The notes under the pieces were generated by a model that was given only the letters and a program-made list of their open reading frames with translations, was not told the DNA's origin and searched no databases. Of a stretch of 59,946 nucleotides of DNA, positions 1-32,215 are shown one piece after another (the first letter of the stretch is position 1; each line of letters opens with the position of its first letter). A program made the position numbers and the translations under genes. Origin of the DNA: Parabacteroides sp. OttesenSCG-928-G21 (GTDB lineage Bacteria; Bacteroidota; Bacteroidia; Bacteroidales; Tannerellaceae); contig JAJDIA010000001.1 in NCBI GenBank assembly GCA_030266465.1, forward strand, positions 1 to 59,946, in the 5' to 3' direction.

Positions 1-279
1 GATGATTTGCCTGTCCAGTTGGAGTACAGGTTTGATTTCATCAATAATCCCTTCAACGTGCCATGGCTTTACTGCTATAATAATCATGTCAGCAGAACGA
101 GCTGCCTCCAGATTATCCTGTGTTATATGAATATCCGGATAGCCTTTTTTTAAATCCTGAAGAGCCGCTTCCGATAAACTTGTACAAGTAATGTCTGAAG
201 CCTTAAACAAAGTGCCTTTTGCTAAACCGCGGGCAATGGCTCCACCTATACTTCCCGCACCAATGATAGAAATCTTCAT
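1..279 (-). CDS. proC: pyrroline-5-carboxylate reductase; only the N-terminal 93 codons lie in the window (ORF runs off the left edge)
   Basis: Reverse-complement translation from the ATG at 277-279 gives MKISIIGAGSIGGAIARGLAKG...MIIIAVKPWHVEGIIDEIKPVLQLDRQII with no stop down to position 1. It carries the GxGxxG Rossmann motif and the AVKP motif typical of ProC. It is absent from the ORF track because the window truncates it; the track ORF 203..448 is a different frame. Confidence 0.8.
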   Translation of the reverse strand, partial: MKISIIGAGSIGGAIARGLAKGTLFKASDITCTSLSEAALQDLKKGYPDIHITQDNLEAARSADMIIIAVKPWHVEGIIDEIKPVLQLDRQII

Positions 280-392
280 GGATATGTAATTTGTTAAAAT
301 AATGATGTATAAAGATAACAAAAGTAGAGAAAATAATGGAATAATCGACAGGCTTGCTTAAATTTGCAGTCATAACTAAATGTATTAATAAG

Positions 393-1580
393 ATGAAGAA
401 ATTATTTTTAGTCATTTTTATAATGACTGGCTTGTTTACCTCTGCCAATGGGCAAGGTAATGAGGGGTATGTGTTTACCCCTGTAAAAGAGTTGAAAATA
501 ACTCCTATTCAAAACCAAAACCGTACAGGTACTTGCTGGTGTTTTTCTACATTGGCTTTTATTGAGTCGGAACTAATCCGTATGGGTAAAGGAGAACATA
601 ACTTCTCTGAAATGTTTGTTGTAAATCATACCTATAGGGATAAGGCAGAAAAATATGTTCGTATGCATGGAACAATGGAGTTTGCTGAAGGTGGGGCTTT
701 TGATGATGTCATCTATGCCATTAAACATTATGGATTGGTTCCTGAGGATGTAATGCCCGGCAAAGAGTATGGAGAAGATGCTCATGTTCATAGTGAGATG
801 GCAGCTGCCATGCGAGGTTATGTGGATGCGATAATTAAAAATCCTAACCGTAAATTATCTACAGCCTGGAAAAATGGTTTTAACGCTATTGCTGACGCCT
901 ATTTAGGTGAATTGCCGGAAAAATTTGTTTATCAGGGAAAGGAATACACGCCTTTAAGTCTGTTGAAAGAATTAGGATTGAATATGGATGATTATATCTC
1001 TTTAACATCGTATTCTCATCATCCTTTTTATGCAACATTTCCTTTAGAGATACCGGATAACTGGCGCTGGTCTGCTTCTTATAACTTACCCATAGATGAG
1101 TTAATGCAGGTTATGGATAATGCTGTGAATACGGGATATACAATTGCATGGGCTTCCGACGTAAGTGAAAACGGATTTACCCGTAATGGAATAGGGGTTA
1201 TGCCTGATGTTACAGCTATCGAGACTGCCGGATCTGATCAGGCTCGCTGGGTTGGATTAAGTGCTACGGAAAAAAATGCAGAGATACAAAAAATGATAGA
1301 TCAACCGGGTTTGCAAGAGCTTTGGGCTACTCAGGAAATGCGTCAGGAAGCTTTTGATAATTATCAGACTACTGATGATCATGGTATGCAGATTTATGGT
1401 ATAGCAAAAGACCAGAATGGAAAAAAGTTTTACATGGTGAAAAATTCATGGGGAACAGATAGTAAATACAACGGTATCTGGTATGTATCCGAAGCCTTTG
1501 CACGCTACAAAACAATGGATATAATTGTCCACAAAAATGCAATCCCAGCTGCAATTAAAACGAAGTTAGGATTGAGATAA
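393..1580 (+). CDS. C1-family cysteine peptidase (aminopeptidase C / bleomycin-hydrolase-like) with signal peptide
   Basis: The QNQNRTGTCWCFS active-site Cys context matches papain-like C1B enzymes. The start was moved to the ATG at 393 (MKKLFLVIFIMTGLFTSANG signal peptide) inside track ORF 354..1580. Confidence 0.85.
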   Translation: MKKLFLVIFIMTGLFTSANGQGNEGYVFTPVKELKITPIQNQNRTGTCWCFSTLAFIESELIRMGKGEHNFSEMFVVNHTYRDKAEKYVRMHGTMEFAEGGAFDDVIYAIKHYGLVPEDVMPGKEYGEDAHVHSEMAAAMRGYVDAIIKNPNRKLSTAWKNGFNAIADAYLGELPEKFVYQGKEYTPLSLLKELGLNMDDYISLTSYSHHPFYATFPLEIPDNWRWSASYNLPIDELMQVMDNAVNTGYTIAWASDVSENGFTRNGIGVMPDVTAIETAGSDQARWVGLSATEKNAEIQKMIDQPGLQELWATQEMRQEAFDNYQTTDDHGMQIYGIAKDQNGKKFYMVKNSWGTDSKYNGIWYVSEAFARYKTMDIIVHKNAIPAAIKTKLGLR

Positions 1581-1600
1581 TAAAAACAAATAGATAAAAA

Positions 1601-1634
1601 AATCGCTCAAGAAATCTTTTCTGAGCGATTTTTC
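1601..1634. terminator. bidirectional intrinsic terminator hairpin between convergent genes
   Basis: AATCGCTCA (1601-1609) pairs with TGAGCGATT (1622-1630). The stem is flanked by an A-run upstream and a T-run downstream. Confidence 0.7.
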
Positions 1635-1744
1635 TACTTAATAAAGGAAGTGAATGATTCATCTTCCGGTAACGGACCTACAATAAATACCTGAGAGTTT
1701 TTAATCTAATATCTAAGAACGGTTGATGTTACTTTATGATTGAA

Positions 1745-3508
1745 TTACCAACCTGGATTTTGTTTCAAGGGACCACCAACAATTTCTCCGCTCAACAAGA
1801 TCTCTTGTTGCGGAAATGGAAGTAATTCGTGCTTGCCTGTTTTAAAACCATATCCTGATTCATTTATGACCTGATTTTGTACTCCTAATGTGTAAGCAAT
1901 ACCATTAACAGTAACAGAGCCTTCGCTTCTGGAATTAAGATTTACCAAATTACCTTCACTATCATAAGTTGCCCCCTCAGTATAGGCAGAAAAATAAGGA
2001 ATGTCAGCACCCTGATCTTTCATGTTTGTTGAAGCAAGTCCCCAGCGTATAAGGTCGTATGAACGAGTACCTTCAAGATATAGTTCACAACGTTTTTCTT
2101 GTTGTAAGTCTGAAAGTGTAATATTTGACATGTCCGCCAATCCAGCTCTTCTACGTACCTGATTCATATATTGGTCAGCCTTACCTTGATTGCCAATCAT
2201 TAGATTAGCTTCAGCTGCCAGTAACAAAACTTCGGCATAACGCATAATAGGATAATTTTTTTCAGTAGCATGGTTAGTAATACAATCAAGATTTTGATCC
2301 CTGAAATACTTCATGTCAAACACACCATCACTTGCATAAATAGTGTAGATCCCGTTTTTCACACCTACTCCCATATCGTTTACAAGCTGTTCATAGGTTC
2401 TGATACTTCCATGCATACGGTCATTGTCGGCACCTTGCCAGGCAACCATAGCATCATAAGCTTCCCGGCGTGGAGTCAGGAAGTTACTTGCGCGGTTACA
2501 AGGAACTATTGTTCCGTATGCGGTTATAGCAGCATTGTCCCATCCGATCATATACGATTCGAAACCTGCTGAAAGATTTGTTCCTGTATTGGATGCGTTA
2601 AATATGCGATTAAATTCATACATATTTTCAGAAGACCAGTTTGTTGCATTCTTTAGGATATCAACGAATGGTCCGTCATAGAGGGCATACATGTTGCTAT
2701 TGATGAGTGTTTCAAAAACTTCCGCAGCTTTTGACCAATATTCGGATGTCTGAGCTTTTGCTACTGCTGCAGTAGCTTGTTCGCCTCCTAAAGCTCCACC
2801 ATTTAATGAATAAGTCATAAATACATATGCTTTGCCTAAAAGGGCTTGAGCATAACCCGTTGTTACATTAGCAACAGCATCGTTTACGGATTTTTTCTGT
2901 GGTAAGTCGCCAGAACTGAGCGCTTGAGTCAGGTCAGTTACAACGAGATTCCAAAGCTCTTCCGGATTTCCATTCGGTTGCTGATATTCGTCAGGTGTTA
3001 GACAATGATCAACTAATGGTGGAGTACCCCACAACGTGATTAATTCTGTGTAAGCCCATGCGCGCCATACTTTAGCTTGTGCTACGGCACTTTTCTTTGT
3101 AGTCGTATCAAGATTATCTCCTGAAAAATTATCAATAATAAGATTGCAGCGATAAATGAAGTTATAGAGCAACTGGAAATAGCTTAATACGAAAGGATTT
3201 TCTGCTTCAAAAGTAAACTCATTTATGGCTTCATAGAGTGCCTGGTCATTTCTTTTCAAGCCTCCTGAATAGATATCGTCACTCATGATATTTTTCATGA
3301 AAGGATATATTCCATTGTTACTGCTGTAAGTAACATTCCAAAGATATCTGTAAACTACCGCAAGGGCAGCTTCGGCATCCTCATCTGTTTTATAAAAATC
3401 ACTTTGAGGCATTACACCTTTACGAGGAATATCCAGCAAATCGTCACTGCATGAAGTAATCGCAGTTAAAACAGCTATGATTCCAATCAATAAATATTTT
3501 ATTTTCAT
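1745..3508 (-). CDS. susD: SusD/RagB-family nutrient-binding outer-membrane lipoprotein
   Basis: Lipobox (LTAITSCSDD), size near 590 aa, TPR-like SusD sequence character, and position immediately downstream of a SusC-type gene. The start is set at the ATG at 3508 (MKIKYLL); the track start at 3517 is a TTG. Confidence 0.9.
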   Translation of the reverse strand: MKIKYLLIGIIAVLTAITSCSDDLLDIPRKGVMPQSDFYKTDEDAEAALAVVYRYLWNVTYSSNNGIYPFMKNIMSDDIYSGGLKRNDQALYEAINEFTFEAENPFVLSYFQLLYNFIYRCNLIIDNFSGDNLDTTTKKSAVAQAKVWRAWAYTELITLWGTPPLVDHCLTPDEYQQPNGNPEELWNLVVTDLTQALSSGDLPQKKSVNDAVANVTTGYAQALLGKAYVFMTYSLNGGALGGEQATAAVAKAQTSEYWSKAAEVFETLINSNMYALYDGPFVDILKNATNWSSENMYEFNRIFNASNTGTNLSAGFESYMIGWDNAAITAYGTIVPCNRASNFLTPRREAYDAMVAWQGADNDRMHGSIRTYEQLVNDMGVGVKNGIYTIYASDGVFDMKYFRDQNLDCITNHATEKNYPIMRYAEVLLLAAEANLMIGNQGKADQYMNQVRRRAGLADMSNITLSDLQQEKRCELYLEGTRSYDLIRWGLASTNMKDQGADIPYFSAYTEGATYDSEGNLVNLNSRSEGSVTVNGIAYTLGVQNQVINESGYGFKTGKHELLPFPQQEILLSGEIVGGPLKQNPGW

Positions 3509-3541
3509 AATATACAATTTAAAAGAGTAAAATTCAAATAA

Positions 3542-6500
3542 TTAGAAAGTAAGGTTTACACCAAGAATATAGTTTCTGTTATTTGGATATCTTCCGGAAT
3601 CTATACCCATAGAATTACCGGAACTCATAATTTCAGGGTCAAATCCCGGATAATCGGTGATCGTGAACAAATTTTCGCATGAAGCGTAAATTCTCAGATT
3701 TTCAATTAACAATTTCTTTGTTAGATTTGAAGGTATAGTGTATCCGACTTGTAATTGTTTTAGTTTAAAATAGTCTCCCTTGAATATCTGCGCATCACTG
3801 ACATAATAGTAACCCACATCATCCATACCGACTTTAGGAACATTTGTGTTTCTATTCGTTTCTGTCCAGGCATCTTCCAGAAGATAGGCAGGTACATTAG
3901 ACTGAAGTTGGAATGCGCGTGTTACGGTTTGGAAAATTTTATTTCCTCCTTGTCCTGCCCCGAAAACGATGAGGTCAAAATTCTTGTAGTTGGCAGTAAT
4001 AGTCAAACCATAACTGTATGTAGGAATACCGCTTCCACAATCAACTTTATCATCTGCATCAAGTATGCCGTTATCATTAACATCATAAAATGTGGGATTC
4101 CCGTTTTCGTCTACACCAGTATAGTGATAGGTTTTGAAGTGCCACATCGGATAGCCTTGTTCGAACCAGGTTACCGTTTGACTATCTTGTGAGGCGCCGG
4201 CAATATAAGTAAGTGTGCTGGTTATTTCCTTCACTTCATTTTTTAGAGTTGTGAAATTCCCACTTATTGAATAACTGAAATCTTTGCCAATTTGATCTCT
4301 CCATGTTACTTCGAATTCATGGCCCATATTTTCTACTTTTCCCGCATTGAATGGGGAAGCAGTAATGCCCATAACATAGGATGGAGTGATACCTGTCAAA
4401 ATAAGGTCTTTTGTAGTTTTCTTATACCAATCGTACGAGAATGACAGGCGGTTGTTCAATAAGCGTACATCAAACCCAAGGTCGAGTTGTTCGGAGGTTT
4501 CCCATTTTAAGTTCTCATTACCCGCTGTTGAAGGCAATTTTCCTGTAACATATATCATTTGATCCGGATTGAAAGAGTATACCTGACTTGAAGCAATAGC
4601 ACTTTGCCAAGTATAATTACTTAAACCGGCAGTTGATCCGTTTTGTCCCCATGAAGCGCGAAGTTTTAAATGTGAGATACTATTGATATCTTTCATGAAA
4701 TCTTCATTAGAAACAGTCCATCCAACTGAACCTGCCGGGAAATACCCCCAACGTCCATTTGCAGGGAGTTGAGAAAGGTCGGCAGCATCTGCCCGAAGAG
4801 AAGCCTGGAAGAAATATTTATTGTCATAATCATAATTGATACGACCATAGTATGCTATTTTTCTTCCGGTATATTCTTCTCCGCCAGAGGCAGTTTGAGA
4901 ATAACTTCCGCTTTTATAAGCAAAATAAGCATATAGGGGGTCAAGATTTTGGAAGCCACTATTTGTTCCTGTTCCTTGAACTCTGCCTGTAACGTATGAA
5001 CTTCGATTTTGTATATACGACATACCTGCCATAAGAGTCATGTTGTGTAATCCGAATGATTTAGTATAATTGGCAAAGTTTTCCCATTGATATCCTTCAC
5101 CTGTTCTTTCTGTTGCTTCTACAGTCTGATTATAGGATGATGACTGAGAACTGTAAACGCCCGGAAGTTCTTGGGAATATGAACGTTGGGAATTGATATT
5201 ATATCCTAATCGCGAAGTGAATATAAAGTCTTTTATAGGGGTGAATATTAAAGCTGTTGTACCATTAATACTTGAACCTTTAGACCATGCATTACTTCTG
5301 TTAAGCGTATTTATCGGATTTACATCATCCCCGGTAGAATAAACCGGAAGAGTAGCGTAGTTGCCGTCTTTATCCTGAATAAGGTTATAACCCTGATCAA
5401 TATAAGATGCCATATGGCTTGTCGGTTCTGAAACGGTAGGAGTGAAAAGCGGACTCATACGCATAGCAGATCCAAACACATTGGCGCCCCCGTTTGTCTT
5501 TGCATACGAGATATTATTATTCGTTGTGACTTTCAACCACGGTTTTACCTGATATTCACCATTAAAAGTAGCAGTATAACGAACATACTTGTCTTTTGTT
5601 CCGATAACGGGACCATCATTCGTATTTGATGATAAGGCTATATAATAAGCCATATCACTATTACCTCCCGAAAAAGCAAGATTATGTCTTGTCAATATAC
5701 CTGTACCGAATATATGGCCGAGCCAGTCGGTATCAGTAGTTCTGTCTCCCCAGTCTGCATCGAGTGCTGATTGGTTAGAAGCACTTAAAGTCGTTTGATA
5801 GTCATAAAATTGTTGGGCATTGAGCATGGTAGGAACATTGTTGTTCGATTGCCAGGAATTCATAAAGCGATATTGAATACTCCCTTTAGTACTTCTATCT
5901 CCCTTTTTAGTCGTAATTAAAATAACACCATTACCTGCTCGAGCACCATAGATGGCTGCTGCTGAGGCATCTTTCAGAATCTCCATGGACTCGATATCAT
6001 CGGAGTCCAGATAGTTGATGTCATTAACCTGACGTCCGTCGACTACGTAAAGAGGATCATTGTTGGAGTTTGATCCCATACCACGAACGCGTACACTACC
6101 GGCAGTACCGGGTTGACCTGAAGATAAGAAGATTTGTACACCTGCCGTTTTCCCTTGTAATGCTTGTGTAGCATCAGAGAAAGCACGGTTTTCCATATCC
6201 TCGGATTTAACTTGAGATATGGCTCCTGTTACCTGGCTTTTCTTCTGCACACCGTAACCAACAACGATTACTTCATCCAAGGTTTGTGTGTCTTCAGCGA
6301 GAGTTACAGAAATATTCGTCTGATTTTCAACAGGAATTTCTCTGGTAACGTATCCAATATAAGAAACAACTAAAATGGCGTTATTAGGTACATTCTGGAT
6401 CCGAACATTCCCATCTAAATTTGTTACATCCCCATTAGTTGTGCCTTTAATAATAACATTAGCCCCAATTACGGGTCCCATGTTATCAACAACAGTCACT

Positions 6501-6640
6501 GTAATCGTACGTCCTTGCAGAACGTCGTCTACAATCGCATCAGATGTATTCCGAACATTATCGACTGCCCATATATTAGTACTGAACAGTAATAGTAATG
6601 TTCCTAAAAACATCTTTTTACAAAAAATAGATTTACTCAT
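3542..6640 (-). CDS. susC: SusC/RagA-family TonB-dependent outer-membrane transporter
   Basis: 1032 aa with a signal peptide and an N-terminal carboxypeptidase-regulatory-like domain (TVVDNMGPVIGANVIIKGTTNG). It also has a plug domain and the C-terminal beta-barrel ending NYILGVNLTF. Confidence 0.93.
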   Translation of the reverse strand: MSKSIFCKKMFLGTLLLLFSTNIWAVDNVRNTSDAIVDDVLQGRTITVTVVDNMGPVIGANVIIKGTTNGDVTNLDGNVRIQNVPNNAILVVSYIGYVTREIPVENQTNISVTLAEDTQTLDEVIVVGYGVQKKSQVTGAISQVKSEDMENRAFSDATQALQGKTAGVQIFLSSGQPGTAGSVRVRGMGSNSNNDPLYVVDGRQVNDINYLDSDDIESMEILKDASAAAIYGARAGNGVILITTKKGDRSTKGSIQYRFMNSWQSNNNVPTMLNAQQFYDYQTTLSASNQSALDADWGDRTTDTDWLGHIFGTGILTRHNLAFSGGNSDMAYYIALSSNTNDGPVIGTKDKYVRYTATFNGEYQVKPWLKVTTNNNISYAKTNGGANVFGSAMRMSPLFTPTVSEPTSHMASYIDQGYNLIQDKDGNYATLPVYSTGDDVNPINTLNRSNAWSKGSSINGTTALIFTPIKDFIFTSRLGYNINSQRSYSQELPGVYSSQSSSYNQTVEATERTGEGYQWENFANYTKSFGLHNMTLMAGMSYIQNRSSYVTGRVQGTGTNSGFQNLDPLYAYFAYKSGSYSQTASGGEEYTGRKIAYYGRINYDYDNKYFFQASLRADAADLSQLPANGRWGYFPAGSVGWTVSNEDFMKDINSISHLKLRASWGQNGSTAGLSNYTWQSAIASSQVYSFNPDQMIYVTGKLPSTAGNENLKWETSEQLDLGFDVRLLNNRLSFSYDWYKKTTKDLILTGITPSYVMGITASPFNAGKVENMGHEFEVTWRDQIGKDFSYSISGNFTTLKNEVKEITSTLTYIAGASQDSQTVTWFEQGYPMWHFKTYHYTGVDENGNPTFYDVNDNGILDADDKVDCGSGIPTYSYGLTITANYKNFDLIVFGAGQGGNKIFQTVTRAFQLQSNVPAYLLEDAWTETNRNTNVPKVGMDDVGYYYVSDAQIFKGDYFKLKQLQVGYTIPSNLTKKLLIENLRIYASCENLFTITDYPGFDPEIMSSGNSMGIDSGRYPNNRNYILGVNLTF

Positions 6641-6788
6641 GTGTGATTAGATTTAAAGATTAATATAAAAGAGCAAAGTTTTATTATCAAATTATGAGAG
6701 TAGGTATAAGAGCTGATAGGCTTTTAATACGCTTGTGTTTATCGTTATTAATTTTGTTATAAAAAAGGACCACCGTTTTAGCGAGTTT

Positions 6789-6819
6789 AAATAGCACGGA
6801 ATTTTCATCCGTGCTATTT
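6789..6819. other. 12-bp perfect stem-loop between the Tat-signal gene and susC (possible intra-operon attenuator or processing site)
   Basis: AAATAGCACGGA (6789-6800) pairs with TCCGTGCTATTT (6808-6819). There is no strong U-run on the minus-strand transcript. Confidence 0.4.
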
Positions 6820-6869
6820 ATTATTTAAGACGCATGAGAAAAAAAGATTTTGGAAATGGTGGTTATTTT

Positions 6870-7865
6870 TTAAGCATACCAAGGACGTTTCCGATTTCCA
6901 AGGCTTGCTATTGTTTCATTAAAGATGTTTACATCTTGAATCATGTTGAAGTCAAACATGCCTAAGCAGATAAAGTCTCCACCGTTTTCAAGGCCATATC
7001 TGATTCCGTCAGCAGGAGGAATTGCACCGGCAGCAAGTACTTTAAATGCAATGAATGGTTCTTTTCTCCCTTCAAAGAAGGCAATCGTTCCGTCCGGATC
7101 ATCACAATACCTGTTATCCCTTGCCGGTTCGCCCGGACGTGCAGACCAATAATTATGATGATGCAAAGTTTTCATCCAAAAATCAGGAACAAGCCCATTG
7201 GCAACACATGCTTTTAATGATTCGATATGGTGTGCTCCTATACCTGCGGGCATTCCTGCTTTTCTAAAAACTTCAAGTCCTTTTTCAATACTTTTAAAAT
7301 CACCTGCTTTCACGAGCCGGTCGGTCATTTCTCCCTGACAATAACCGGCAACGCAACCGCCATCAATTGATTCCTGAGCAGCAGTAGCAAATTCACCACT
7401 ACCACAATCCGAAATCCATTTGATTTTACCAATTCCACGAGACCAGTATTTATTCAATATTGGAATCATTGTAGGGTGACCTAAAATAGTATCTACACCG
7501 CAATTCTCTGCCATTTGGAATATCTCCATTTTCTTGTCGTCTGTCAAATATGCCCTGGCTAATGATCCGACATAATTTAGATCACGAGAATGTAACCATC
7601 CGCCAATAGGATTACCACCAAGGATCAGCTTGGAAAATTCCACATTTCCGATTTTGCCTTTGGCTGTAACTGGTCCTTGCAGTGTGTTTTGCTGAGCTTG
7701 CATAGCTGCCCGCTGTTCCGGAGTCATTCTTGTTTGTGGTAAAGCATCTACAGGAACAGCTGTTGAATGATTAAAAACTTCAGCTGAAGCTTTTCCGCTT
7801 AACATCAGACCTGCAGTTGCAAGTCCACCTGTTTTTAGAAATTCTAATCTTGATATTTTTTTCAT
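6870..7865 (-). CDS. uncharacterised exported protein with a Tat-like signal; paralogue of the C-terminal domain of 15804..17330
   Basis: N-terminus MKKISRLEFLKTGGLATAGLMLSGKASA. It shares long motif blocks with 15804..17330: GGWxHSRDLxYVGSL, ISDC, QGExTDR, AGIGAH, PDFWxKTxHHHNYWSAR, KVxAAGAI, RKRPW. I do not recognise the family. Confidence 0.75.
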   Translation of the reverse strand: MKKISRLEFLKTGGLATAGLMLSGKASAEVFNHSTAVPVDALPQTRMTPEQRAAMQAQQNTLQGPVTAKGKIGNVEFSKLILGGNPIGGWLHSRDLNYVGSLARAYLTDDKKMEIFQMAENCGVDTILGHPTMIPILNKYWSRGIGKIKWISDCGSGEFATAAQESIDGGCVAGYCQGEMTDRLVKAGDFKSIEKGLEVFRKAGMPAGIGAHHIESLKACVANGLVPDFWMKTLHHHNYWSARPGEPARDNRYCDDPDGTIAFFEGRKEPFIAFKVLAAGAIPPADGIRYGLENGGDFICLGMFDFNMIQDVNIFNETIASLGNRKRPWYA

Positions 7866-7901
7866 CTCAATAACTATTTAATGGTTTATAATTTTATTGT
7901 A

Positions 7902-8822
7902 TTAATATTCCGTTGTCTCATCCAATAAAGCGGCGCCAATCAACGGAGCATTATCACCAAGGGAAGAATGAACAATTTCTATTTTTTGTGCAACAGCAGA
8001 ATAAGCATGCTTTTGCACAAATTCTCTTAATGGATTTAATAATAAATGATCCGGTGCATTACTGATTCCTCCACTGATTGCGATCATTTCCAGACTGATA
8101 AGATTAATAAGATTAACCATGCCGATCCCAAGACTATGTACTACCTGTTCTGTTATTTTCAGTGCCGCTTTGTTGCCGGATTCAGCTAATTGATAAATAT
8201 CTTTTACTTTTAGGTTGTCGCCTAATGCTTTTCCAGCTTGTGTAATCGCTAATCCTGCGCAATACGTTTCCAGACAACCTTTACGGCCACAGTTACATTG
8301 CGGACCATTGGGGTCAAGCAACTGATGGCCAAATTCTCCGGCCGTATTATAGCCGCCATGAAAAATCATGCCATTGATTATCAAACCACAACCAATACCG
8401 GTGCCGATAGTAATAGCTGCTATATTGTTGTAATTCTTACCGGCTCCCACACAGTATTCGCCCCAAGCAGCAGCTCTGGAGTCTTGACCCAGATATATCG
8501 GACAATTAAATGTGTAGGCTATTTTTGATTTCACATCTACATTCCTGAAAAAGATATTAGGTGCAAAAACGACTATACCTTTTTGGGACTCAACAGTTCC
8601 GGGAAATCCAAGGCCGATAGATGCGATATCGTTATTTGAAAGATCTAATTTTTTCAATAAGGCTTTAATATTGTAGATAATAGATTCGATAATCATTTCG
8701 CTGTCTCCGCGTCCTGATTGTGTATGTGCCGTAATCTTATCAATTATACGTCCGTCAGCGGTAACGGCACCAACATTAATAGTCGTTCCACCTACATCTA
8801 CTCCAATATTAATTTTATCCAT
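7902..8822 (-). CDS. ROK-family sugar kinase
   Basis: N-terminal ATP-binding DVGGT motif and the ROK zinc motif CNCGRKGCLETY. Confidence 0.88.
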   Translation of the reverse strand: MDKINIGVDVGGTTINVGAVTADGRIIDKITAHTQSGRGDSEMIIESIIYNIKALLKKLDLSNNDIASIGLGFPGTVESQKGIVVFAPNIFFRNVDVKSKIAYTFNCPIYLGQDSRAAAWGEYCVGAGKNYNNIAAITIGTGIGCGLIINGMIFHGGYNTAGEFGHQLLDPNGPQCNCGRKGCLETYCAGLAITQAGKALGDNLKVKDIYQLAESGNKAALKITEQVVHSLGIGMVNLINLISLEMIAISGGISNAPDHLLLNPLREFVQKHAYSAVAQKIEIVHSSLGDNAPLIGAALLDETTEY

Positions 8823-8825
8823 GAT

Positions 8826-9269
8826 TTAATGTGTGTTTTCGTATGCTGCAATTTTTTCGATTCGAGCTGCATGGCGGCCACCTTCAAAAGGCGTATTCAG
8901 CCATTCGTCAATAATCATCTTTGCAAGTTCTATTCCTATAACTCTCCCCCCCAATGAAAGGACATTGGTGTTGTTGTGCTCACGAGATAATTTGGCTGAA
9001 TATGGTTCGCTACACACAATACATCGTATGCCTTTTACTTTATTTGCCGCGATAGAGATTCCCACACCGGTTCCGCAACAAAGTATACCACATTCAAATT
9101 CTCCTTTTGCAACAGCTTCACCTACAGCAAAGCCATAATCGCAATAATCAACACTTTCTTTTGAATATGTGCCAAAGTCTGACACCTGATGTCCTTTATT
9201 TAAAATGTATTCTTTGATCTGCTCTTTGAATTCGTAAGCAGCATGATCTGAGCCTATAGCTATTTTCAT
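8826..9269 (-). CDS. rpiB: RpiB/LacA/LacB-family sugar-phosphate isomerase
   Basis: MKIAIGSDHAAYEFKEQI...CGTGVGISIAANK is typical of RpiB. The start is set at the ATG at 9269; the track's longer ORF would overlap the upstream permease gene. Confidence 0.88.
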   Translation of the reverse strand: MKIAIGSDHAAYEFKEQIKEYILNKGHQVSDFGTYSKESVDYCDYGFAVGEAVAKGEFECGILCCGTGVGISIAANKVKGIRCIVCSEPYSAKLSREHNNTNVLSLGGRVIGIELAKMIIDEWLNTPFEGGRHAARIEKIAAYENTH

Positions 9270-9279
9270 CGTATATGTT

Positions 9280-10299
9280 TCATTTTGAAAGCGTAAGTAA
9301 AACAACACCTGCTGCGAAGAACAAGAACATCAATGCAATAAGCTTATTAGTGCCTTTAGGCGCACCCCTAAACTCTTTCCACACGAATACTCCCCAGATT
9401 GCTGCAATCATCGGGTTACTTTGACCAAGTGCATAAGCCACTGCAGCTCCTACCATACCGGAAGCAATAATATTAAAGGTAGTACCTGTTGCATTAATCA
9501 TACCTCCGGTGATACCGATAATATGATCTTTGGCAGATTGTTTGAAATATCCTTTATAAGTAACCGGCTCACCTTTGAAAGGATGACGCATTACATACGT
9601 ATTATAAATAAAATTGGAAAGGAAAGATGCGCCGGCAAATACAACCACTGCCGAGTATGGTGTAAATTTACCTGTGCCGGTAATGCTTGATAAACTTTCT
9701 GCATTAAGCACCGTTGGCATGGAATTCTGAAGCAGATAATAGAATAGCCCCATAAGAAAACCACCAATGATAGCCAGCTTGATACCCTTTTTTACCATAA
9801 CTTTATCCTCTTCCTTAGTATTCATCTTAGCATATGCCCGTGCATTGATAACTATGGCGATAACGACACATAGCATACCGGCAAATATTAAGATAGGATC
9901 GCCTTCCGGTTTCGCGATGTAATTTAGTATTACCCCCAAGACAAGTGAGAATCCCATTCCAACAGGGAATGCCACAGCCATACCTGCAATATCAACCGAT
10001 GCAACAAATATGATGTTTGCAAGATTGAAAACAAACGCAGCGCCTATAGCCCATAGCCATGAAGAGGCATCAGCTTCAAGTAAATTTGGAATAAATGCCT
10101 GTCCTTCTTGCCCGATTGATCCCATTGTTAAAGCCAATATCAATGGCAACAAAATATAACCAATCGCCTGATCCCAGTAATAATAGGAATAAGAATAGCC
10201 TTTGCTCTGCATTTTAAGCATATTGGCATGTGAACCCCAGCAAATCATAGTGATGACACACATCAAAATGGCAACGTTATAAGAGTCAACTATATACAT
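9280..10299 (-). CDS. DMT-superfamily sugar permease (GRP/RhaT-like, about 10 TM)
   Basis: 339 aa, hydrophobic throughout. Its size and position among sugar-phosphate genes fit a glucose/ribose-porter-type permease. Confidence 0.6.
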   Translation of the reverse strand: MYIVDSYNVAILMCVITMICWGSHANMLKMQSKGYSYSYYYWDQAIGYILLPLILALTMGSIGQEGQAFIPNLLEADASSWLWAIGAAFVFNLANIIFVASVDIAGMAVAFPVGMGFSLVLGVILNYIAKPEGDPILIFAGMLCVVIAIVINARAYAKMNTKEEDKVMVKKGIKLAIIGGFLMGLFYYLLQNSMPTVLNAESLSSITGTGKFTPYSAVVVFAGASFLSNFIYNTYVMRHPFKGEPVTYKGYFKQSAKDHIIGITGGMINATGTTFNIIASGMVGAAVAYALGQSNPMIAAIWGVFVWKEFRGAPKGTNKLIALMFLFFAAGVVLLTLSK

Positions 10300-10353
10300 A
10301 CTTCAGTCGTTTTAATTAATTATTTAGTATTAGATATTTTTTATCTGTTGTTT

Positions 10354-11022
10354 TTAATACAATGACTTAACCAGTTCAACCGATTCTTTGATGGAATGAC
10401 CCTCACGGAATACACTTGAAGTACCCCCTACAAGTATGGTTGCGCCGGCTTCGACCATCAAGGGGATATTCTCTATACTGACATTTCCGTCTACCAGGAT
10501 TTCAACATTCTCTTTGCCTCGGGAATTAAGATAGCCTCTTGTTTCAGCGATTTTTCTTATCATGGCGGGAATCAATTTTTGTCCGGCAAACCCGGGATTG
10601 ATCATCATCAGTGTGACTAAATCCAAATCATCAATAATGTAATTAAGCACATCAACAGGAGTGGCGGGATTAAGTGCAATCCCTGCTTTCATACCTTTGC
10701 GGCGGATAAATGCTAATGCCCGTTGTGCATGTGGAGTTGCTTCATAATGTATTGATAAATATTCTGCTCCCGCTTCAGCTATATCCTCAACATATCTCTC
10801 CGGATCATTGATCATTAAATGGCATTCTAAAGGAATATTAGTCAGTTTATTCAAAGCACGCAGAATATCTATGTTCAGACAGAAGTTAGGAACAAATACA
10901 CCATCCATAATATCTATATGTAAAAGCTCTATTCCGGCTTCCTCTAAACAGTGAACATCTCTTTCCAGATTCAAGATATCTGCACATGCCATTGAAGGGC
11001 TTATTTTAATTTTTCTGCTCAT
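10354..11022 (-). CDS. hexulose/pentulose-phosphate 3-epimerase (Rpe family, AlsE-like)
   Basis: KISPSMACADIL...HIDIMDGVFVPN...ECHLMI...VDGNV...VGGTSSVF. The N-terminal PSxxCxD pattern resembles, from memory, D-allulose-6-P 3-epimerase (AlsE) more than the PSILSADF of housekeeping Rpe. Confidence 0.8.
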   Translation of the reverse strand: MSRKIKISPSMACADILNLERDVHCLEEAGIELLHIDIMDGVFVPNFCLNIDILRALNKLTNIPLECHLMINDPERYVEDIAEAGAEYLSIHYEATPHAQRALAFIRRKGMKAGIALNPATPVDVLNYIIDDLDLVTLMMINPGFAGQKLIPAMIRKIAETRGYLNSRGKENVEILVDGNVSIENIPLMVEAGATILVGGTSSVFREGHSIKESVELVKSLY

Positions 11023-11246
11023 GAATAGTATGGAAATTAATTGTTGAGAAAAACTGTTTCCCGAAATAAAAGTAATCCCATATTATGGGTTAATGCATTC
11101 GTTTTTATTGCTTAATCTTTTGTTTTTATCTCATGTTGAGCGTGTTGTACTGGAATGAGACAAAAAGAGGAATTGGTGAGAAGATAATATAAGTTTCATC
11201 TATTATATACTTAGATCTATAATTTGCCTAGATTTTGTTTTTTATT

Positions 11247-11534
11247 GAAAGTGACTCTCCCCGAACTCTCGGGAGCCCCAAATATTTGAAATGGACCCTT
11301 CCCGAAGTCTCGGGAACCTCTAAATATTTGAAAGTGACCCTTCCCGAAGTCTCAGGAACCTCCAAATATTTGAAATGGACCCTCCCCGAAGTCTCAGGAA
11401 CCTCCAAATATTTGAAAGTGACCCTCCCCGAAGTCTCGGGAACGTCCAAATATTTGAAAGTGACCCTTCCCGAAGTCTCGGGAACCTCCAAATATTTGAA
11501 AGGGACCCTCCCCGAGTTTGGGGAAAGATATCTT
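11247..11534. repeat. 42-bp tandem repeat, about 6.9 copies, each unit carrying a 7-bp stem / 4-nt loop hairpin
   Basis: The unit consensus is GAAAGTGACCCTTCCCGAAGTCTCGGGAACCTCCAAATATTT. The hairpin within it is TTCCCGA-AGTC-TCGGGAA. The first and last copies are degenerate. Three overlapping track ORFs here are stop-free only because of the repeat. Confidence 0.95.
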
Positions 11535-11608
11535 GAAAATAATTTGCGAGTGATTTTTCTAATAATTTGCCTATTGACAACACTTTCCCGTCTTAAACTT
11601 ACGTTAGT

Positions 11609-14600
11609 TTACTTCAGTTTATTCGCTTTGGCATATTTGGATGGACTCATCCCGAATTGTTTAATAAATGCAGTCCAGAAGTAGGATTGTGAACTAAAAC
11701 CTACTAATTCGGAAATTTCATAAATCCTCAGGTCACCCTGAATCAGTAATTCCGCTGCTTTTTTTAGCCGGGCAATTTTTATCAAATCGTGTGGGGTAAG
11801 ACTTGATATGGCATTAATCTTTCTATATAATGTAGGCCGGCTCATATGTAGCATGCTGGCAATTGAATTTACATCGAAGTCCGAATCGCTTAAGTGTTCA
11901 TTAATAATAACATTTAGTTTTTCAAGAAACTCTTCATCTGCTTTGGAATAAGCCATAGATTTCATGTTGGCAATCGGCGATTTGAAATAAAACTGCCGGA
12001 TATTTTCCCGGTTTATTAATAGGTTTGATATTTGCGCGAGGAGTATATCCATTGAAAAAGGTTTGTCGATATAGGCATCAGCTCCCAGTTCTAACCCCTC
12101 TAAACGTGCTTGCATAGTTGTTTTTGCTGTAAGTAAAATGACCGGAATGTGGCTGAATTCGATGTTGGTTTTGATTTCTTTTAATAATTCCAGGCCATCC
12201 ATAACCGGCATTAAGATATCACTGATAACAAGTTGAATATTCTTTTTTTCTAATATCTGCAATGCTTCTTGTCCGTTTCCGGTACTAATAACATTGTATT
12301 TCGGACTTATCTCCGATGAAATTAACGATTTTAATTCTTCATTGTCTTCTACTATTAATATTGATGATCGGTTTGCTTCGTAGGGGTAATCATGAATAAC
12401 AGGCGTGAGGGAGAACGGTTTCTCCTGTATGGATTCGAGAACTTTAGATTGATTGATTGGAGTTATTATTCTGAAGATTGTTTGCTTTTCAGTCGATTCA
12501 ACAACGGATATAGTTCCATTATGTTTTTCAATCAGAAAGCGGCTGAGCGAAAGCCCAAGACCTGTTCCCGGCTTTAGTTCATGTTCTTTGATGCGATAGA
12601 AAGGCTCAAATATTTTCCCCTGATCTTCTTTACGAATAGGTTGGCCATCATTTATGAAATCAATAATAAAAGCTTGCTTATCGTCAGAAACGTGCAAATT
12701 AATATTAACTTGACTGAATGCGTATTTAATGGCATTTGTGAATAGATTGCTTAAAATTTTGGTATAGGCTTCTTTATCTATAGAAACTACCAGGTTATCG
12801 ACCGATAGATCTAAATAGATGGATAAGTTTCTTGCGCTTGCAGACTCTTGAAATCTATTAGCCGTTATTGTAAGCAAAGATACTATGTCGACATTTACAT
12901 AAGTCAGACTTCCTCCTTCTGTTTCAGCTTTTCTGAAGTCTAATAACTGGTTGACTAATTCAATAAGACGTGAAGTGTTTTTTTCCATCAATACTAATGA
13001 TGTACGTCCCCGTTCACAAATTTGACTATGTTTTATCAGTCTTTCAAGCGGAACTTTGATCAATGTCAGTGGTGTTCGTATTTCATGGGCAATATTGATG
13101 AAAAAATCGATTTTAGCCTGATATAATTCTTTTTCTTTCCTGCTTTCAAACAGCTGCATTTCGTATATCATGGATTTTTTTTGTCTGAATACAAAGAATT
13201 TAATAATAAAGAAAATGATGCCTATAATTAATAGTATATATATGCTGTAAGCAGTAGTTGAAGCCCACCAGGGGGGCATGATAGTGATATGTAGAAAAGA
13301 GGAATCGCTTTGTGCCCAATTTCCATAAATATCAGAGGCTTTAATTTCCAATGTGTATTTTCCGGGATGTAAATCCGTGAAATATATAATATTACGCTGT
13401 CCGATTATATTCCATTCTTTACTCGTTTCAACCATACGGTAAGCGTATTGGATAGAACCGGGAGCAATATAACTCAATGTGGAGAAATTAATATTGAATG
13501 TCGATTGGTTATGCTTCAATTCGAGGTGTTGTGCTTCTGACGAGTTGTTTTTACAGAAAAAGCTTAATTCTTCACCGGAGGTGTGAATTGAAGTGATGCA
13601 TACATTTGGCGATGTATTGTTTAGGTGTATTTCCCGGGGATCAAAATGAATCAATCCTTTTACTGTTCCGAAATAGAGTGAACCATCATTGTCTTTAAAT
13701 CCCGCATGATAATTAAATTGTCTTGTGATGAGTCCATGGGCTTCAGTATAAGTTGTAATACTATTATCTAATGTATTTATACTAACTAAACCGGCAGCTG
13801 TGCTTACCCATACATTATTATTATCATCCGAAAGAATCCTGAAAACAATATTACTTGGCATTCCATTTTTTGTTGTAAACCAGGTGATGCTTTCGTTTTC
13901 AAGAGAATATTTTATCAATCCTTTTTCAGTTAATAAAAACCAAATATCACCGTTTTTATCCGTGTAAACATCAGCTACCTCATATCTGCCATCGTTAAAT
14001 TCAGGTATTTCAAGTTTGTGGAAAGTTAATTCCGGTTGATTTAATTCATTCAAATCACAATAATAACGACCTATCCACAATCTGTTACTATTGTCTTGTC
14101 GCAACATGCCAATCGATCTTTTCAATAGGAGAATGAATTGATCTGTTACGGCATCATATTTATAAAGTCCATCGGTCGTAGCTATAAGTAAAATGTCGTT
14201 GTTTATAGATAGCATGGTCGACACACTGCTGTTCACATGTGTTTCGGTGTCTTTGTACAGATTGTAGTTCTTTATTAATTTGCCTGTTTTAATATCTAAT
14301 AAGTCAACGCCATGAATGACATGTCCAATCCATAGTTTATCTTTTGTAACAGCCATCCCTCTTATGTTCGTATGTGTAAGGTTTTGTTGTCCTAATTCGG
14401 AATGATAATTTGTAAATTCTCCGGTTTCTTTATTAAAAGAACTAAGACCTGCGTCTTCAGTGGCTACCCACATAGTACCATAATCATCTACGCAAATATC
14501 ATGAACTACGCCTCCTTTTAAGGATTTGTTATCATTTTTAGGATAATAGACATCAAATGGGTTGAAGGGAGAATAATAGCTTAATCCATTTTGATGATAG

Positions 14601-15559
14601 CCGATCCAGATCCCATTTTCTCGATCTTGATAGAGTTCTGCTACAAAATGGCTCGCTATCCCATATGTATCTAATGGATCCGGAAGAATTTTTATCCATT
14701 CTTCGCTGTTTTTTCTGTAAATAAATATACCGGTATCTGTTCCGACCCAGATTTCATTCGCATTAACCTCTAAAAAGCAATTTATCAATATAGGAGCATC
14801 ATTTTCATCTTGTATGTCTAAATCTTTGTATTTCAACGTAGATGGATCAAAAACCTTCAGGTTGTCGGATTCATAAGCCATATAAATCTCAAATGTATAT
14901 TTAGATGAATACAGTTCAAAGATTTTCTTAGATGTATTAGTTGAATGATTTGGGAACATGTCATATGATTTGAAACTACCGTCGTTTTTATTTAATAAAG
15001 ACAGGTATCCACGAGAGTCTCCAGCCCAAATGCTATTATCTTCTCCTATACAAAATGAGGTGAAATCGAAACCGCTTTCATTTGCGTAGGTTTTGTATGT
15101 ATCATTTAAGACATCATGTTGCACCAAATCCCCGTTTTCAATTCTCCACAAGTTATTATCAGAATCAAATTGGAAAAAGCGGATATGTTTATTCTGTGTG
15201 GAAGGGATTATGTTGAATTTATCTTCTTTCTCCTCGTATTTGTATAACCCGACTCTTGTCCCGATCCATAGATTGCCGTTTTTGTCGCAGTCTAAATGAT
15301 GTATTCTGTTATTATTCTGTAATTGATTACATATAGTTTCGTCCCTATAGGTTTTAAATGTGTAACCATCGAATTTGTTCAACCCATCCCGTGTCCCGAT
15401 CCATATGAAGCCATTTTTATCTTGTATAAAGCCTGTTACTAGATTATCACTAAGGCCATCTCTCACCTGATAATGGCGAAAAATATGCGAATAGTCATTA
15501 GCAATTGCCTGAAGTGATGTGTGAAGTAAAAATAAACAGAGCAAAAATTGTTTAAACAT
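11609..15559 (-). CDS. hybrid two-component system regulator (HTCS): periplasmic beta-propeller/YYY sensor, TM, HisKA, HATPase, REC, AraC-type HTH
   Basis: 1316 aa. Repeated propeller motifs (IWIGT..GL..F/Y), a TM segment (YSIYILLIIGIIFFIIKFFVF), an H-box (NIAHEIRTPL), a receiver (LVISDILMPVMDG) and a C-terminal AraC HTH (GFSSQSYFWTAFIKQFGMSPSKY). Confidence 0.93.
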   Translation of the reverse strand: MFKQFLLCLFLLHTSLQAIANDYSHIFRHYQVRDGLSDNLVTGFIQDKNGFIWIGTRDGLNKFDGYTFKTYRDETICNQLQNNNRIHHLDCDKNGNLWIGTRVGLYKYEEKEDKFNIIPSTQNKHIRFFQFDSDNNLWRIENGDLVQHDVLNDTYKTYANESGFDFTSFCIGEDNSIWAGDSRGYLSLLNKNDGSFKSYDMFPNHSTNTSKKIFELYSSKYTFEIYMAYESDNLKVFDPSTLKYKDLDIQDENDAPILINCFLEVNANEIWVGTDTGIFIYRKNSEEWIKILPDPLDTYGIASHFVAELYQDRENGIWIGYHQNGLSYYSPFNPFDVYYPKNDNKSLKGGVVHDICVDDYGTMWVATEDAGLSSFNKETGEFTNYHSELGQQNLTHTNIRGMAVTKDKLWIGHVIHGVDLLDIKTGKLIKNYNLYKDTETHVNSSVSTMLSINNDILLIATTDGLYKYDAVTDQFILLLKRSIGMLRQDNSNRLWIGRYYCDLNELNQPELTFHKLEIPEFNDGRYEVADVYTDKNGDIWFLLTEKGLIKYSLENESITWFTTKNGMPSNIVFRILSDDNNNVWVSTAAGLVSINTLDNSITTYTEAHGLITRQFNYHAGFKDNDGSLYFGTVKGLIHFDPREIHLNNTSPNVCITSIHTSGEELSFFCKNNSSEAQHLELKHNQSTFNINFSTLSYIAPGSIQYAYRMVETSKEWNIIGQRNIIYFTDLHPGKYTLEIKASDIYGNWAQSDSSFLHITIMPPWWASTTAYSIYILLIIGIIFFIIKFFVFRQKKSMIYEMQLFESRKEKELYQAKIDFFINIAHEIRTPLTLIKVPLERLIKHSQICERGRTSLVLMEKNTSRLIELVNQLLDFRKAETEGGSLTYVNVDIVSLLTITANRFQESASARNLSIYLDLSVDNLVVSIDKEAYTKILSNLFTNAIKYAFSQVNINLHVSDDKQAFIIDFINDGQPIRKEDQGKIFEPFYRIKEHELKPGTGLGLSLSRFLIEKHNGTISVVESTEKQTIFRIITPINQSKVLESIQEKPFSLTPVIHDYPYEANRSSILIVEDNEELKSLISSEISPKYNVISTGNGQEALQILEKKNIQLVISDILMPVMDGLELLKEIKTNIEFSHIPVILLTAKTTMQARLEGLELGADAYIDKPFSMDILLAQISNLLINRENIRQFYFKSPIANMKSMAYSKADEEFLEKLNVIINEHLSDSDFDVNSIASMLHMSRPTLYRKINAISSLTPHDLIKIARLKKAAELLIQGDLRIYEISELVGFSSQSYFWTAFIKQFGMSPSKYAKANKLK

Positions 15560-15803
15560 TATATCCCCCTTTTATTACTATATGTGTAACTGTTATGCAA
15601 GATAGTTATTCTTAACTCTCACCCTATTTTGTTTTGTATCATGAATATCACATTTTGTCTCATTAAGATTTGAGAAGCAGATGATGAGACAGAAAAAGAA
15701 ATTTAAGGTGTAAAAACGAATTAATTAAACAGGTAAATCAAGTTAACTTTATGGTATATAATAAAGAATTAGGGAGGAAAATGTCAAATAAAAACATCGT
15801 GTT

Positions 15804-17330: not shown

Positions 17331-17390
17331 AATTTAATGATATGAAGAAATAGAAATGTATTCCAGATCGAGATAGTGTTTGTAATCAAA

Positions 17391-17421
17391 AGGCCGTCAG
17401 ATTTACTCCGACGGCCTTTAT
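17391..17421. terminator. bidirectional terminator hairpin between convergent genes
   Basis: AGGCCGTC (17391-17398) pairs with GACGGCCT (17410-17417). The stem is followed by TTTATT and preceded by AAAA. Confidence 0.7.
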
Positions 17422-17455
17422 TATAATCTCAAAAGAACAATAGCCAGTTGGCGTA

Positions 17456-18583: not shown

Positions 18584-18591
18584 TTTAATAA

Positions 18592-18635
18592 ATTGAAAAT
18601 TGAAAATTGAAAGTTGAAAATGAAAAATTAAAAAA
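18592..18635. repeat. degenerate 8-nt microsatellite (ATTGAAAA)n in the argC-argD spacer
   Basis: The sequence reads aattgaaaattgaaaattgaaagttgaaaatgaaaaattaaaaa. Confidence 0.8.
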
Positions 18636-18641
18636 TCAATG

Positions 18642-20815: not shown

Positions 20816-20816
20816 C

Positions 20817-21422: not shown

Positions 21423-21469
21423 TTCTAATGTTATACCAGAATAGTTTTCCCTATAAATATCACCTGTTA

Positions 21470-30431: not shown

Positions 30432-30438
30432 GATCGTA

Positions 30439-31893: not shown

Positions 31894-32175
31894 GATACAA
31901 ATGTTTTATTATAAGAACGATTAAAAAATCAATCTTCAAAACTATAAAATGATTGGGATATATTCAACCGAAGGGAATTGACATAAGTCAAATAGGGCTG
32001 GATTTGTCGGGAAAGATGGTTAATTTTTGTTATATATGCTATTTTTTTACAGTAACTCAAAACATTTTGTAGGGTTGCTCTGTTTTACAGAATCACATGT
32101 GAAAGCAGATAAAATATTATTTATTTACAAGAAAGTATGACGCATGATACGCGCTGATTTTTTCACAAAATGCGC

Positions 32176-32183
32176 TATCTTTG
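32176..32183 (+). promoter_or_regulatory. Bacteroidetes-type -7 promoter box (TATCTTTG) upstream of the hybrid kinase gene
   Basis: tatctttg at 32176-32183 lies 33 nt upstream of the ATG at 32216. It sits inside the track's longer ORF, which argues for the downstream start. Confidence 0.5.
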
Positions 32184-32215
32184 CACATTATTTATATATC
32201 AGATTGAGGGACCCT

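Follow-up and report, generated by a model that had tools for sequence, protein, structure and literature searches.

The locus described here lies in Parabacteroides sp. OttesenSCG-928-G21 (Bacteroidota; Tannerellaceae), within positions 1 to 59,946 of contig JAJDIA010000001.1 (GenBank assembly GCA_030266465.1, forward strand); this whole stretch of 59,946 nt is called the window, and all positions refer to it unless another locus is named. Open reading frames (ORFs) were listed for positions 1-20000 and their products annotated with Pfam and NCBIfam. Seven co-directional genes on the minus strand encode, in this order, an Rpe-family epimerase, a GRP/DMT permease, RpiB, a ROK kinase, an exported protein of 331 amino acids (aa), SusC and SusD. 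Together they form a genuine, conserved SusC/SusD (SusCD) operon without a known carbohydrate-active enzyme (CAZyme). The genes of the operon, the hybrid two-component system (HTCS) regulator beside it and a divergent gene encoding a paralogue of the exported protein are the following.

10354-11022, minus strand: Rpe-family ketose-phosphate 3-epimerase with an AlsE-type β8 loop (PF00834, Ribul_P_3_epim, 219 bits)
9280-10299, minus strand: inner-membrane sugar permease, GRP branch of the DMT superfamily (Ureide_permease 60.5 bits, Sugar_transport 27.3 bits)
8826-9269, minus strand: RpiB-type aldose-phosphate/ketose-phosphate isomerase (LacAB_rpiB 206 bits; TIGR01120 203 bits, cut-off 138.65)
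7902-8822, minus strand: ROK-family sugar kinase, glucokinase-like, without a DNA-binding domain (Pfam ROK 251 bits)
6870-7865, minus strand: exported 331-aa orphan (β/α)8 TIM-barrel protein (no Pfam, NCBIfam or PDB sequence match)
3542-6640, minus strand: SusC/RagA-type TonB-dependent transporter (TIGR04056 802.8 bits; Plug, CarbopepD_reg_2 and barrel domains)
1745-3508, minus strand: SusD-family outer-membrane lipoprotein (Pfam SusD_RagB 114.8 bits; SusD-like_3)
11609-15559, minus strand: HTCS regulator of 1316 aa (twelve Pfam domains)
15804-17330, plus strand: DoxX membrane domain fused to a TIM-barrel paralogue, 508 aa (Pfam DoxX, PF07681, 39.7 bits)

The operon, its regulator and their conservation

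The initial annotation of this DNA had proposed seven co-directional minus-strand genes with a hybrid two-component regulator directly upstream. The ORF list and the Pfam and NCBIfam assignments agree on the seven genes, and a complete HTCS was found at 11609-15559. The coordinates given above are those of the ORF list except at two gene starts, which were corrected. The ORF of RpiB (8826-9308) begins at a GTG at 9308, which is less likely as a start than position 9269, from which the product has 147 aa as in the orthologues. The ORF of SusD (1745-3517) reaches a TTG at 3517, while the likelier start is the ATG at 3508; the N-terminus, MKIKYLLIGIIAVLTAITSC (MKIKYLL...TSC), is a lipoprotein signal, and SusD orthologues have 587 aa. 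The spacers between the seven genes, from the epimerase to SusD, are 54, 10, 3, 36, 229 and ~33 bp. SusC is without an STN domain, several hydrophobic segments were found in the permease by a hydropathy scan, and comparison of SusD with solved structures gave weak and uninformative matches only.

The locus has the features by which a polysaccharide utilization locus (PUL) is recognized, namely adjacent susC-like and susD-like genes, here ~33 bp apart, and a linked sensor-regulator, whose linkage is kept in the orthologous loci. At least one CAZyme is usual for a PUL but lies outside the minimal definition. No product encoded between 354 and 17330 matches a glycoside hydrolase (GH), polysaccharide lyase (PL) or carbohydrate esterase (CE) family in Pfam or NCBIfam, in line with the initial annotation, which had recognized no hydrolase, lyase or esterase. 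That annotation had also named a match of the 331-aa protein or its paralogue to a known GH, PL or CE family as the observation that would speak against it. Neither protein, the DoxX fusion included, matches a curated model of such a family in Pfam or NCBIfam, and the 50 best Foldseek matches of the 331-aa protein contain no glycosidase.

The domains of the HTCS include Reg_prop, Y_Y_Y, HisKA, HATPase_c, Response_reg and HTH_18; the protein has a periplasmic sensor of the double β-propeller kind and an output domain of the AraC type. Its sensor matches the BT4663-type structures 4a2l and 3v9f, and a single transmembrane helix is predicted at residues 773-791. Orthologues of the regulator flank the cluster in loci L005-7, L011, L012 and L110.

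Orthologous loci were gathered from public assemblies via homologues of the 331-aa protein. At protein identities of 62-98%, the gene set recurs in four or more independent contigs, in one case reordered. The closest contig (L002/L003) carries the same eight genes in the same order at 90-98% identity, and gene set and order are also identical in two loci from Tannerellaceae metagenome-assembled genomes (L011, L012). In the reordered version (L005-L007, 62-86% identity) the permease, RpiB, ROK kinase, unknown protein, SusC and SusD are followed by the epimerase, which has been relocated downstream of susD and is still inside the cluster. Between this epimerase and the regulator (16953-19552 of L005, and likewise in L006 and L007) lie genes for a DUF1080 (3keto-disac_hyd) lipoprotein, a second ROK kinase and an Fe/Mn superoxide dismutase. 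The permease is the best-conserved gene of the cluster (86-98% identity). No carrier in culture was found.

Outside this clade, the nearest relatives of the epimerase are acidobacterial (57-61% identity), and they are encoded in an epimerase-permease-RpiB cassette of the same gene order (L096/97). The cassette occurs again in a Bacteroidota-type locus (L114/L115) with the order SusC (with STN domain), SusD, Lyase_1, MmgE/PrpD, a 499-aa protein, a 75-aa ORF, epimerase, permease and RpiB. Here the 499-aa product joins DoxX to the orphan barrel and is 46% identical to the DoxX fusion of the window. The epimerase-permease-RpiB cassette is therefore a unit, tied to the orphan barrel in two independent architectures. 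As a side observation, the enzyme mixture at 1-12247 of L114, where a fumarate-lyase-family protein (Lyase_1) and an MmgE/PrpD-family protein come before the DoxX fusion, the 75-aa ORF (cysteine-rich) and the cassette, hints at a sugar conjugate rather than at a glycan. Literature searches on this type of locus returned nothing relevant.

The cytoplasmic module and its proposed substrate

The window epimerase scores 223.8 bits on TIGR01163 (Rpe, cut-off 212.6) and 194.8 bits on NF007266 (AlsE, cut-off 271). When the same two models were calibrated with E. coli proteins, AlsE scored 212.4 and 426.8 bits and Rpe 319.6 and 179.5 bits, respectively. The window protein is thus 96 bits under E. coli Rpe on the Rpe model, and by these scores it appears to be as atypical an Rpe as AlsE itself, yet not an AlsE orthologue, with which it shares 39% identity. 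Among solved structures, it stands at roughly the same distance from genuine Rpe enzymes (172-162 bits) as from AlsE of E. coli (162 bits). In the alignment, the loop after strand β8 reads VGGTSSVF in the window protein, IVGTSGLF in AlsE and VAG-SAIF in E. coli Rpe, so that the short loop of canonical Rpe (G-S-A type) is not present in the window protein (GGTSSVF), whose loop is one residue longer than those of E. coli Rpe, 1tqj, 2fli, 7u5y and 7sbj. Chan et al. (Biochemistry 2008) reportedly found that in AlsE this additional residue makes the phosphate site longer, to suit a hexulose-6-phosphate, and that its deletion shifts the preference to ribulose-5-phosphate. The AlsE-length loop suggests specificity for hexulose-6-phosphate in the window enzyme as well. 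Among the 120 closest homologues of the epimerase there is no named Bacteroides or Parabacteroides Rpe, which suggests that the ordinary Bacteroidales Rpe belongs to a different clade.

RpiB is 58% identical to E. coli RpiB, which is annotated as allose-6-phosphate isomerase/ribose-5-phosphate isomerase B, and keeps the active-site cysteine of the CGTGVG motif and the phosphate-binding GGRHxxR motif. It belongs to the RpiB family, and a role as allose-6-phosphate isomerase is predicted. The ROK kinase falls under every NCBIfam equivalog cut-off. We considered whether it is an AlsK orthologue and ruled this out by its 26% identity to E. coli AlsK, its score below the cut-off of the AlsK model and its closer resemblance to glucokinases.

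The initial annotation had compared the kinase, RpiB and the epimerase with the D-allose enzyme set of E. coli. In terms of protein families and reaction logic the two sets appear to be equal, but not in terms of orthology: the RpiB-type isomerase was borne out by sequence (203 bits on TIGR01120 and 58% identity), the kinase proved not to be an orthologue, and the epimerase is AlsE-like in the length of its β8 loop, while it stays below the cut-off of the AlsE model, shares only 39% of its residues with AlsE and is formally above the cut-off for Rpe. The import and catabolism of a rare hexose, which the annotation had deduced from this set, keeps the conserved linkage, the AlsE-type loop and RpiB on its side, and lacks an AlsK orthologue and an AlsE orthologue.

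The reading we prefer, which we hold with somewhat less than even confidence, is that of an operon for a small rare carbohydrate that undergoes a probably non-hydrolytic step in the periplasm, is taken up by the DMT permease and is converted to fructose-6-phosphate by the kinase, RpiB and the AlsE-like epimerase. The predicted sugar is D-allose, D-allulose or a glycoside from which an allo-configured hexose is released; the catalytic steps of the route are predictions throughout. SusD and SusC would carry a small glycoside, an oligosaccharide or the free sugar over the outer membrane, and the exported orphan barrel would turn it into a transportable hexose in the periplasm, by a chemistry that, judged by context, may be cofactor- or metal-dependent keto-sugar chemistry or isomerization and not Koshland-type hydrolysis. 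The GRP/DMT permease would then bring the hexose in and the ROK kinase phosphorylate it; RpiB would convert a ribo- or allo-configured aldose-6-phosphate to the ketose-6-phosphate, and the AlsE-like epimerase would invert C3 to give fructose-6-phosphate. The HTCS would detect a ligand in the periplasm and turn the operon on. We also count in favor of this reading the flavin dehydrogenases and multihaem cytochrome beside orthologues of the DoxX fusion, described below, and the DUF1080 lipoprotein of L005-7, as DUF1080 proteins of Bacteroides and Alistipes have been described as lyases or hydratases that act on 3-keto-glucosides in a non-Koshland periplasmic pathway.

Several observations weigh against the rare-hexose route. 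The kinase is 26% identical to E. coli AlsK, scores 141.7 bits on the AlsK model NF007251 (cut-off 253) and has the glucokinases 2qm1 and 3vgk, from Gram-positive organisms, as its nearest PDB entries, with AlsK (3htv) at only 83 bits. The epimerase passes the Rpe equivalog cut-off, by a margin of 11 bits, and fails that of AlsE, and a 68%-identical epimerase with equal loop length stands alone in a housekeeping-like neighborhood of another lineage. AlsE and Rpe are reportedly promiscuous toward each other's substrates (Chan et al. 2008), so that the length of the β8 loop is a hint at specificity and no proof. As for the periplasmic step, the catalytic role of the barrel is putative, and GFO/Idh/MocA oxidoreductases occur within 10 kb in 22 of 104 loci of the barrel family and within 3.5 kb in 9 of them, which is not clearly above background. 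An oligosaccharide-type β-propeller sensor also fits poorly with a locus that is free of depolymerases. Finally, we know of no abundant natural source of allo-configured hexoses for gut Bacteroidales.

In an alternative that we regard as unlikely, ribose, or a related pentose set free in the periplasm, enters through the permease, the kinase forms the 5-phosphate, and RpiB and an Rpe-type epimerase lead from ribose-5-phosphate to xylulose-5-phosphate and so into the non-oxidative pentose phosphate pathway, in parallel to the Bacteroides rus locus with an isomerase and an epimerase added. This would agree with the scores of the epimerase and RpiB, both above their equivalog cut-offs, with the name Rpe that NCBI and JGI give to orthologues of the epimerase, with the solitary, seemingly housekeeping homologue just mentioned, and with the match of the permease to Sugar_transport (PF06800), its family being one that includes ribose uptake proteins. 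However, ROK kinases are kinases of hexoses or hexosamines, with no ribokinase known among them, and the structures nearest to the window kinase are glucokinases. The AlsE-type extra residue of the epimerase and its distance from E. coli Rpe on the Rpe model are not those expected under this alternative, and the catabolism of ribose requires the addition of neither an isomerase nor an epimerase.

The exported barrel and the DoxX fusion

The 331-aa protein is the only candidate for periplasmic chemistry within the operon. Neither its single sequence nor its family profile gave anything usable in Pfam, NCBIfam or PDB, and in 37 family members no Pfam match for the barrel was obtained even at E=5, PF00248 included. 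Its AlphaFold2 model (pLDDT 83.8) is an eight-stranded α/β barrel, which Foldseek places nearest to 4exb, a putative aldo-keto reductase (TM 0.70, 13% identity), and next to generic phosphate-binding barrels (DERA, KDO8P and DAHP synthases, IMPDH and OMP decarboxylase). Two identities were examined and set aside. The aldo-keto reductase match to 4exb is at the level of the fold only, with no PF00248 match and an hhalign probability of 1% against an aldo-keto reductase; and the hhalign alignment with a xylose-isomerase-like barrel encoded elsewhere in the window (probability 47%) is limited to the signal peptide and the N-terminal region.

The family comprises 2,734 homologues in a word-indexed search and 1,419 clusters at 50% identity in an exhaustive profile search of 1.8 billion representatives; the latter returned family members only, and none of the 150 listed proteins connected the family to a named one. 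Its hosts are Bacteroidota, Planctomycetota, Acidobacteriota, Kiritimatiellia, Lentisphaerota and other glycan-degrading groups. Free-standing barrels are found in the closest relatives only, while most members are ~500 aa long and consist of an N-terminal DoxX domain, an RRxLLK motif, a hydrophobic helix and the barrel. Some 60 positions do not vary, among them five cysteines and a number of histidines and aspartates. Two of the five conserved cysteines are substituted in L114, so the conserved cysteines are not all essential. We regard the barrel family as an orphan family of exported enzymes.

The Tat (twin-arginine translocation) signal that the initial annotation had assigned to the 331-aa protein was not upheld: the leader is Tat-like, but with a degenerate motif (S-R-L-E-F-L-K) that has a single arginine. 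Close homologues have K-R or a single R at this place, and a true RR (R-R-E-L-L-K before a hydrophobic helix) is found only in the DoxX-fused relatives; the Pfam model TAT_signal matches 4 of 37 family members. In one other locus (L004, 6298-10957), genes for two aldo-keto reductases and an esterase precede that of a free-standing homologue (68% identity), with no SusCD, under a divergent AraC-type regulator.

The barrel could also found an unrecognized GH (or lyase) family, in which case the locus would be an ordinary PUL whose cytoplasmic module handles the released monosaccharide. Glycosidases adopt the (β/α)8 barrel more often than any other fold, the 331-aa protein is exported and encoded beside susC, and many invariant aspartate, glutamate and histidine residues appear to lie at strand ends in the predicted structure. 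Other family members occur in carbohydrate-rich neighborhoods, near fucosidases, GH130, sulfatases and SusCD. The β-propeller sensor of the HTCS suggests an oligosaccharide signal, as β-propeller sensors in characterized systems bind oligosaccharides. Against such a hidden CAZyme, the 50 solved structures nearest to the predicted model by Foldseek contain no glycosidase and are led by the aldo-keto reductase and the phosphate-binding barrels; the β7-β8 segment of the family profile weakly matches the phosphate- or flavin mononucleotide (FMN)-binding motif of IMPDH/GMP reductase; and about three-quarters of the listed family members are fused to DoxX via a twin-arginine linker, an arrangement typical of cofactor-bearing redox proteins and unusual for a glycosidase. 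We consider a hidden hydrolase or lyase quite improbable.

In the DoxX fusion of the window, the last 255 aa share 52.5% identity with the 331-aa protein, an RR-containing linker helix joins DoxX and barrel, and the gene is divergent from that of the regulator. It may belong to the same regulon as the operon, of which it is a candidate member; a 94% orthologue in L110 lies near an HTCS orthologue with two extra genes between them. A metagenome scan found no close orthologue of the fusion, and literature searches found neither a characterized DoxX protein with this C-terminal barrel nor a description of the fusion. In other loci, orthologues of 65-67% identity come directly after SusD and beside periplasmic flavin dehydrogenases. 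Two individual cases of redox neighbors are given here. In the first (L111, 5096-14667), the orthologue follows SusC and SusD and stands beside Gluconate_2-dh3, a GMC oxidoreductase and a multihaem cytochrome c; in the second (L112, 1306-7871), it stands beside two FAD_oxidored proteins, one of them Tat-signalled.

The fusion to DoxX together with the twin-arginine linker points to a cofactor-bearing, possibly quinone-linked enzyme rather than a hydrolase. Within the preferred rare-carbohydrate reading, the DoxX-fused paralogue may run the same chemistry as the free barrel in a membrane-anchored form, possibly coupled to menaquinone. One speculative idea is that a 3-keto-hexose arises in the periplasm and that its reduction yields the allo epimer, which could explain the allose-type funnel; literature searches for a link from 3-ketoglucose to allose returned nothing relevant. 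In its widest form, which we think improbable, the barrel, free or DoxX-fused, would represent a new class of periplasmic carbohydrate-processing enzymes whose bound cofactor, connected through DoxX to the menaquinone pool in the fused form, makes or reduces a 3-keto sugar, so as to deliver an allo-configured hexose and not glucose. If this were true, it would explain why a funnel from allose-6-phosphate to fructose-6-phosphate sits in a CAZyme-less SusCD operon, and glycosides would be broken down by a second non-Koshland route, one that is widespread in Bacteroidota, Planctomycetota and Acidobacteriota.

Two non-coding elements were found at the operon.

11245-11515, no strand assigned: 42-bp tandem repeat, 6.5 copies (TRF score 430, 90% matches)
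6788-6820, no strand assigned: stem-loop with a perfect stem of 13 bp, lying in the spacer (229 bp) that separates the TIM-barrel gene from susC

The repeat sits in the 586-bp region between the stop codon of the HTCS gene and the first gene of the operon and occurs nowhere else in the window; each unit contains a short GC hairpin and the palindrome CAAATATTTG. An array of operators was considered and set aside, because the repeat was found neither in the orthologous loci L002 and L012 nor in any other locus that was fetched. For the same reason it is treated as lineage-specific, and its membership in the system is uncertain. The stem-loop has a calculated folding free energy of -20.2 kcal/mol (z-score -6.2), is kept in the 90%-identical L002 and is missing from orthologous loci at a greater distance; it may act in processing or attenuation. 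No Rfam family was found in the window, and a sigma-70 promoter scan remained at background level, the sigma-70 consensus being not applicable to Bacteroidota.

Directly past the DoxX fusion, the sugar locus is bounded by an arginine-biosynthesis block at 17456-21910, with genes for a class-III aminotransferase, a semialdehyde dehydrogenase, argininosuccinate synthase, a GNAT-like protein and the repressor ArgR. Further away, a xylose-isomerase-like TIM barrel and a GFO/Idh/MocA oxidoreductase are encoded side by side at 29454-31893, at a distance of 18 kb, with twin-arginine-type leaders (NRRDFIK and SRRAFL) and an adjoining hybrid histidine kinase (32144-35347). The two proteins resemble the lyase and the oxidoreductase known from the 3-keto-glycoside pathway published for Bacteroides, with no DUF1080 partner alongside. 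A 739-aa protein at 25611-27830, with a DUF4842 domain and a weak match to the G8 domain, is apparently unrelated to the operon.

Significance and comparison with known systems

That the epimerase and RpiB are ordinary pentose phosphate genes that happen to lie beside susCD, functionally unconnected to it, is very improbable even though both exceed housekeeping equivalog cut-offs, because their linkage survives reordering at 62-70% identity, the cassette recurs by a different SusCD pair with the same orphan barrel family, and the permease always lies between epimerase and RpiB in the cassette, Acidobacteria included.

PULs are usually interpreted via their CAZymes, and loci that have none are mostly passed over. 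The present one joins, in a compact and conserved form, a SusCD importer, a cytoplasmic funnel with an AlsE-type determinant and a large uncharacterized family of exported proteins. As the downstream pathway constrains what the product can be, the operon offers an experimental handle on the orphan family and on the DoxX fusion. AlsE has been reported in few gut species in a published survey; if the allose reading is true, AlsE-type metabolism would also be found in gut or termite-gut Bacteroidales.

Four known systems invite comparison. With the DoxX/DoxD family of thiosulfate:quinone oxidoreductase subunits, the protein at 15804-17330 shares a bona fide DoxX domain (PF07681), and it differs by its C-terminal barrel, with which no characterized DoxX protein was found.

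The fructan PUL of B. thetaiotaomicron (BT1754-BT1765) and the rus locus resemble the operon in combining SusCD, an inner-membrane monosaccharide permease, one or more cytoplasmic sugar kinases and a dedicated sensor-regulator, which is an HTCS in the fructan PUL. They contain hydrolases, GH32 in the former and a glycosidase and a nucleoside hydrolase in the latter, whereas the operon has none and adds an isomerase, an epimerase and the orphan barrel.

The periplasmic 3-keto-glycoside pathway (BT2156-BT2159 and AL1-AL3) is similar in that glycosides are processed by a non-Koshland route in the periplasm of Bacteroidales, with Tat-exported, cofactor-bearing enzymes; a DUF1080 member is present in L005-7, and the pair of GFO/Idh/MocA and xylose-isomerase-like proteins lies 18 kb off in the window. 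In contrast, the GFO/Idh/MocA oxidoreductase, the xylose-isomerase-like lyase and DUF1080 are all missing from the operon, the orphan barrel has no detectable sequence kinship to the xylose-isomerase-like lyase, and the known end product of that pathway is glucose and not an allo-configured sugar.

The D-allose operon of E. coli (alsRBACEK with rpiB) differs in its transport, regulation and periplasmic step. It uses the ABC transporter AlsBAC where the window locus has SusCD and a GRP/DMT permease, and the RpiR-type AlsR where the latter has an HTCS; neither an AlsBAC transporter nor an AlsR-type repressor is encoded at 1-17500. The additional periplasmic enzyme is found in the window locus only, and the identities of the kinase (26%) and of the epimerase (39%) are low. 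What the two operons have in common is a ROK kinase, an RpiB-type isomerase and an Rpe-family 3-epimerase in the same logical order, with RpiB 58% identical between them and the β8 loop of AlsE matched in length by that of the window epimerase.

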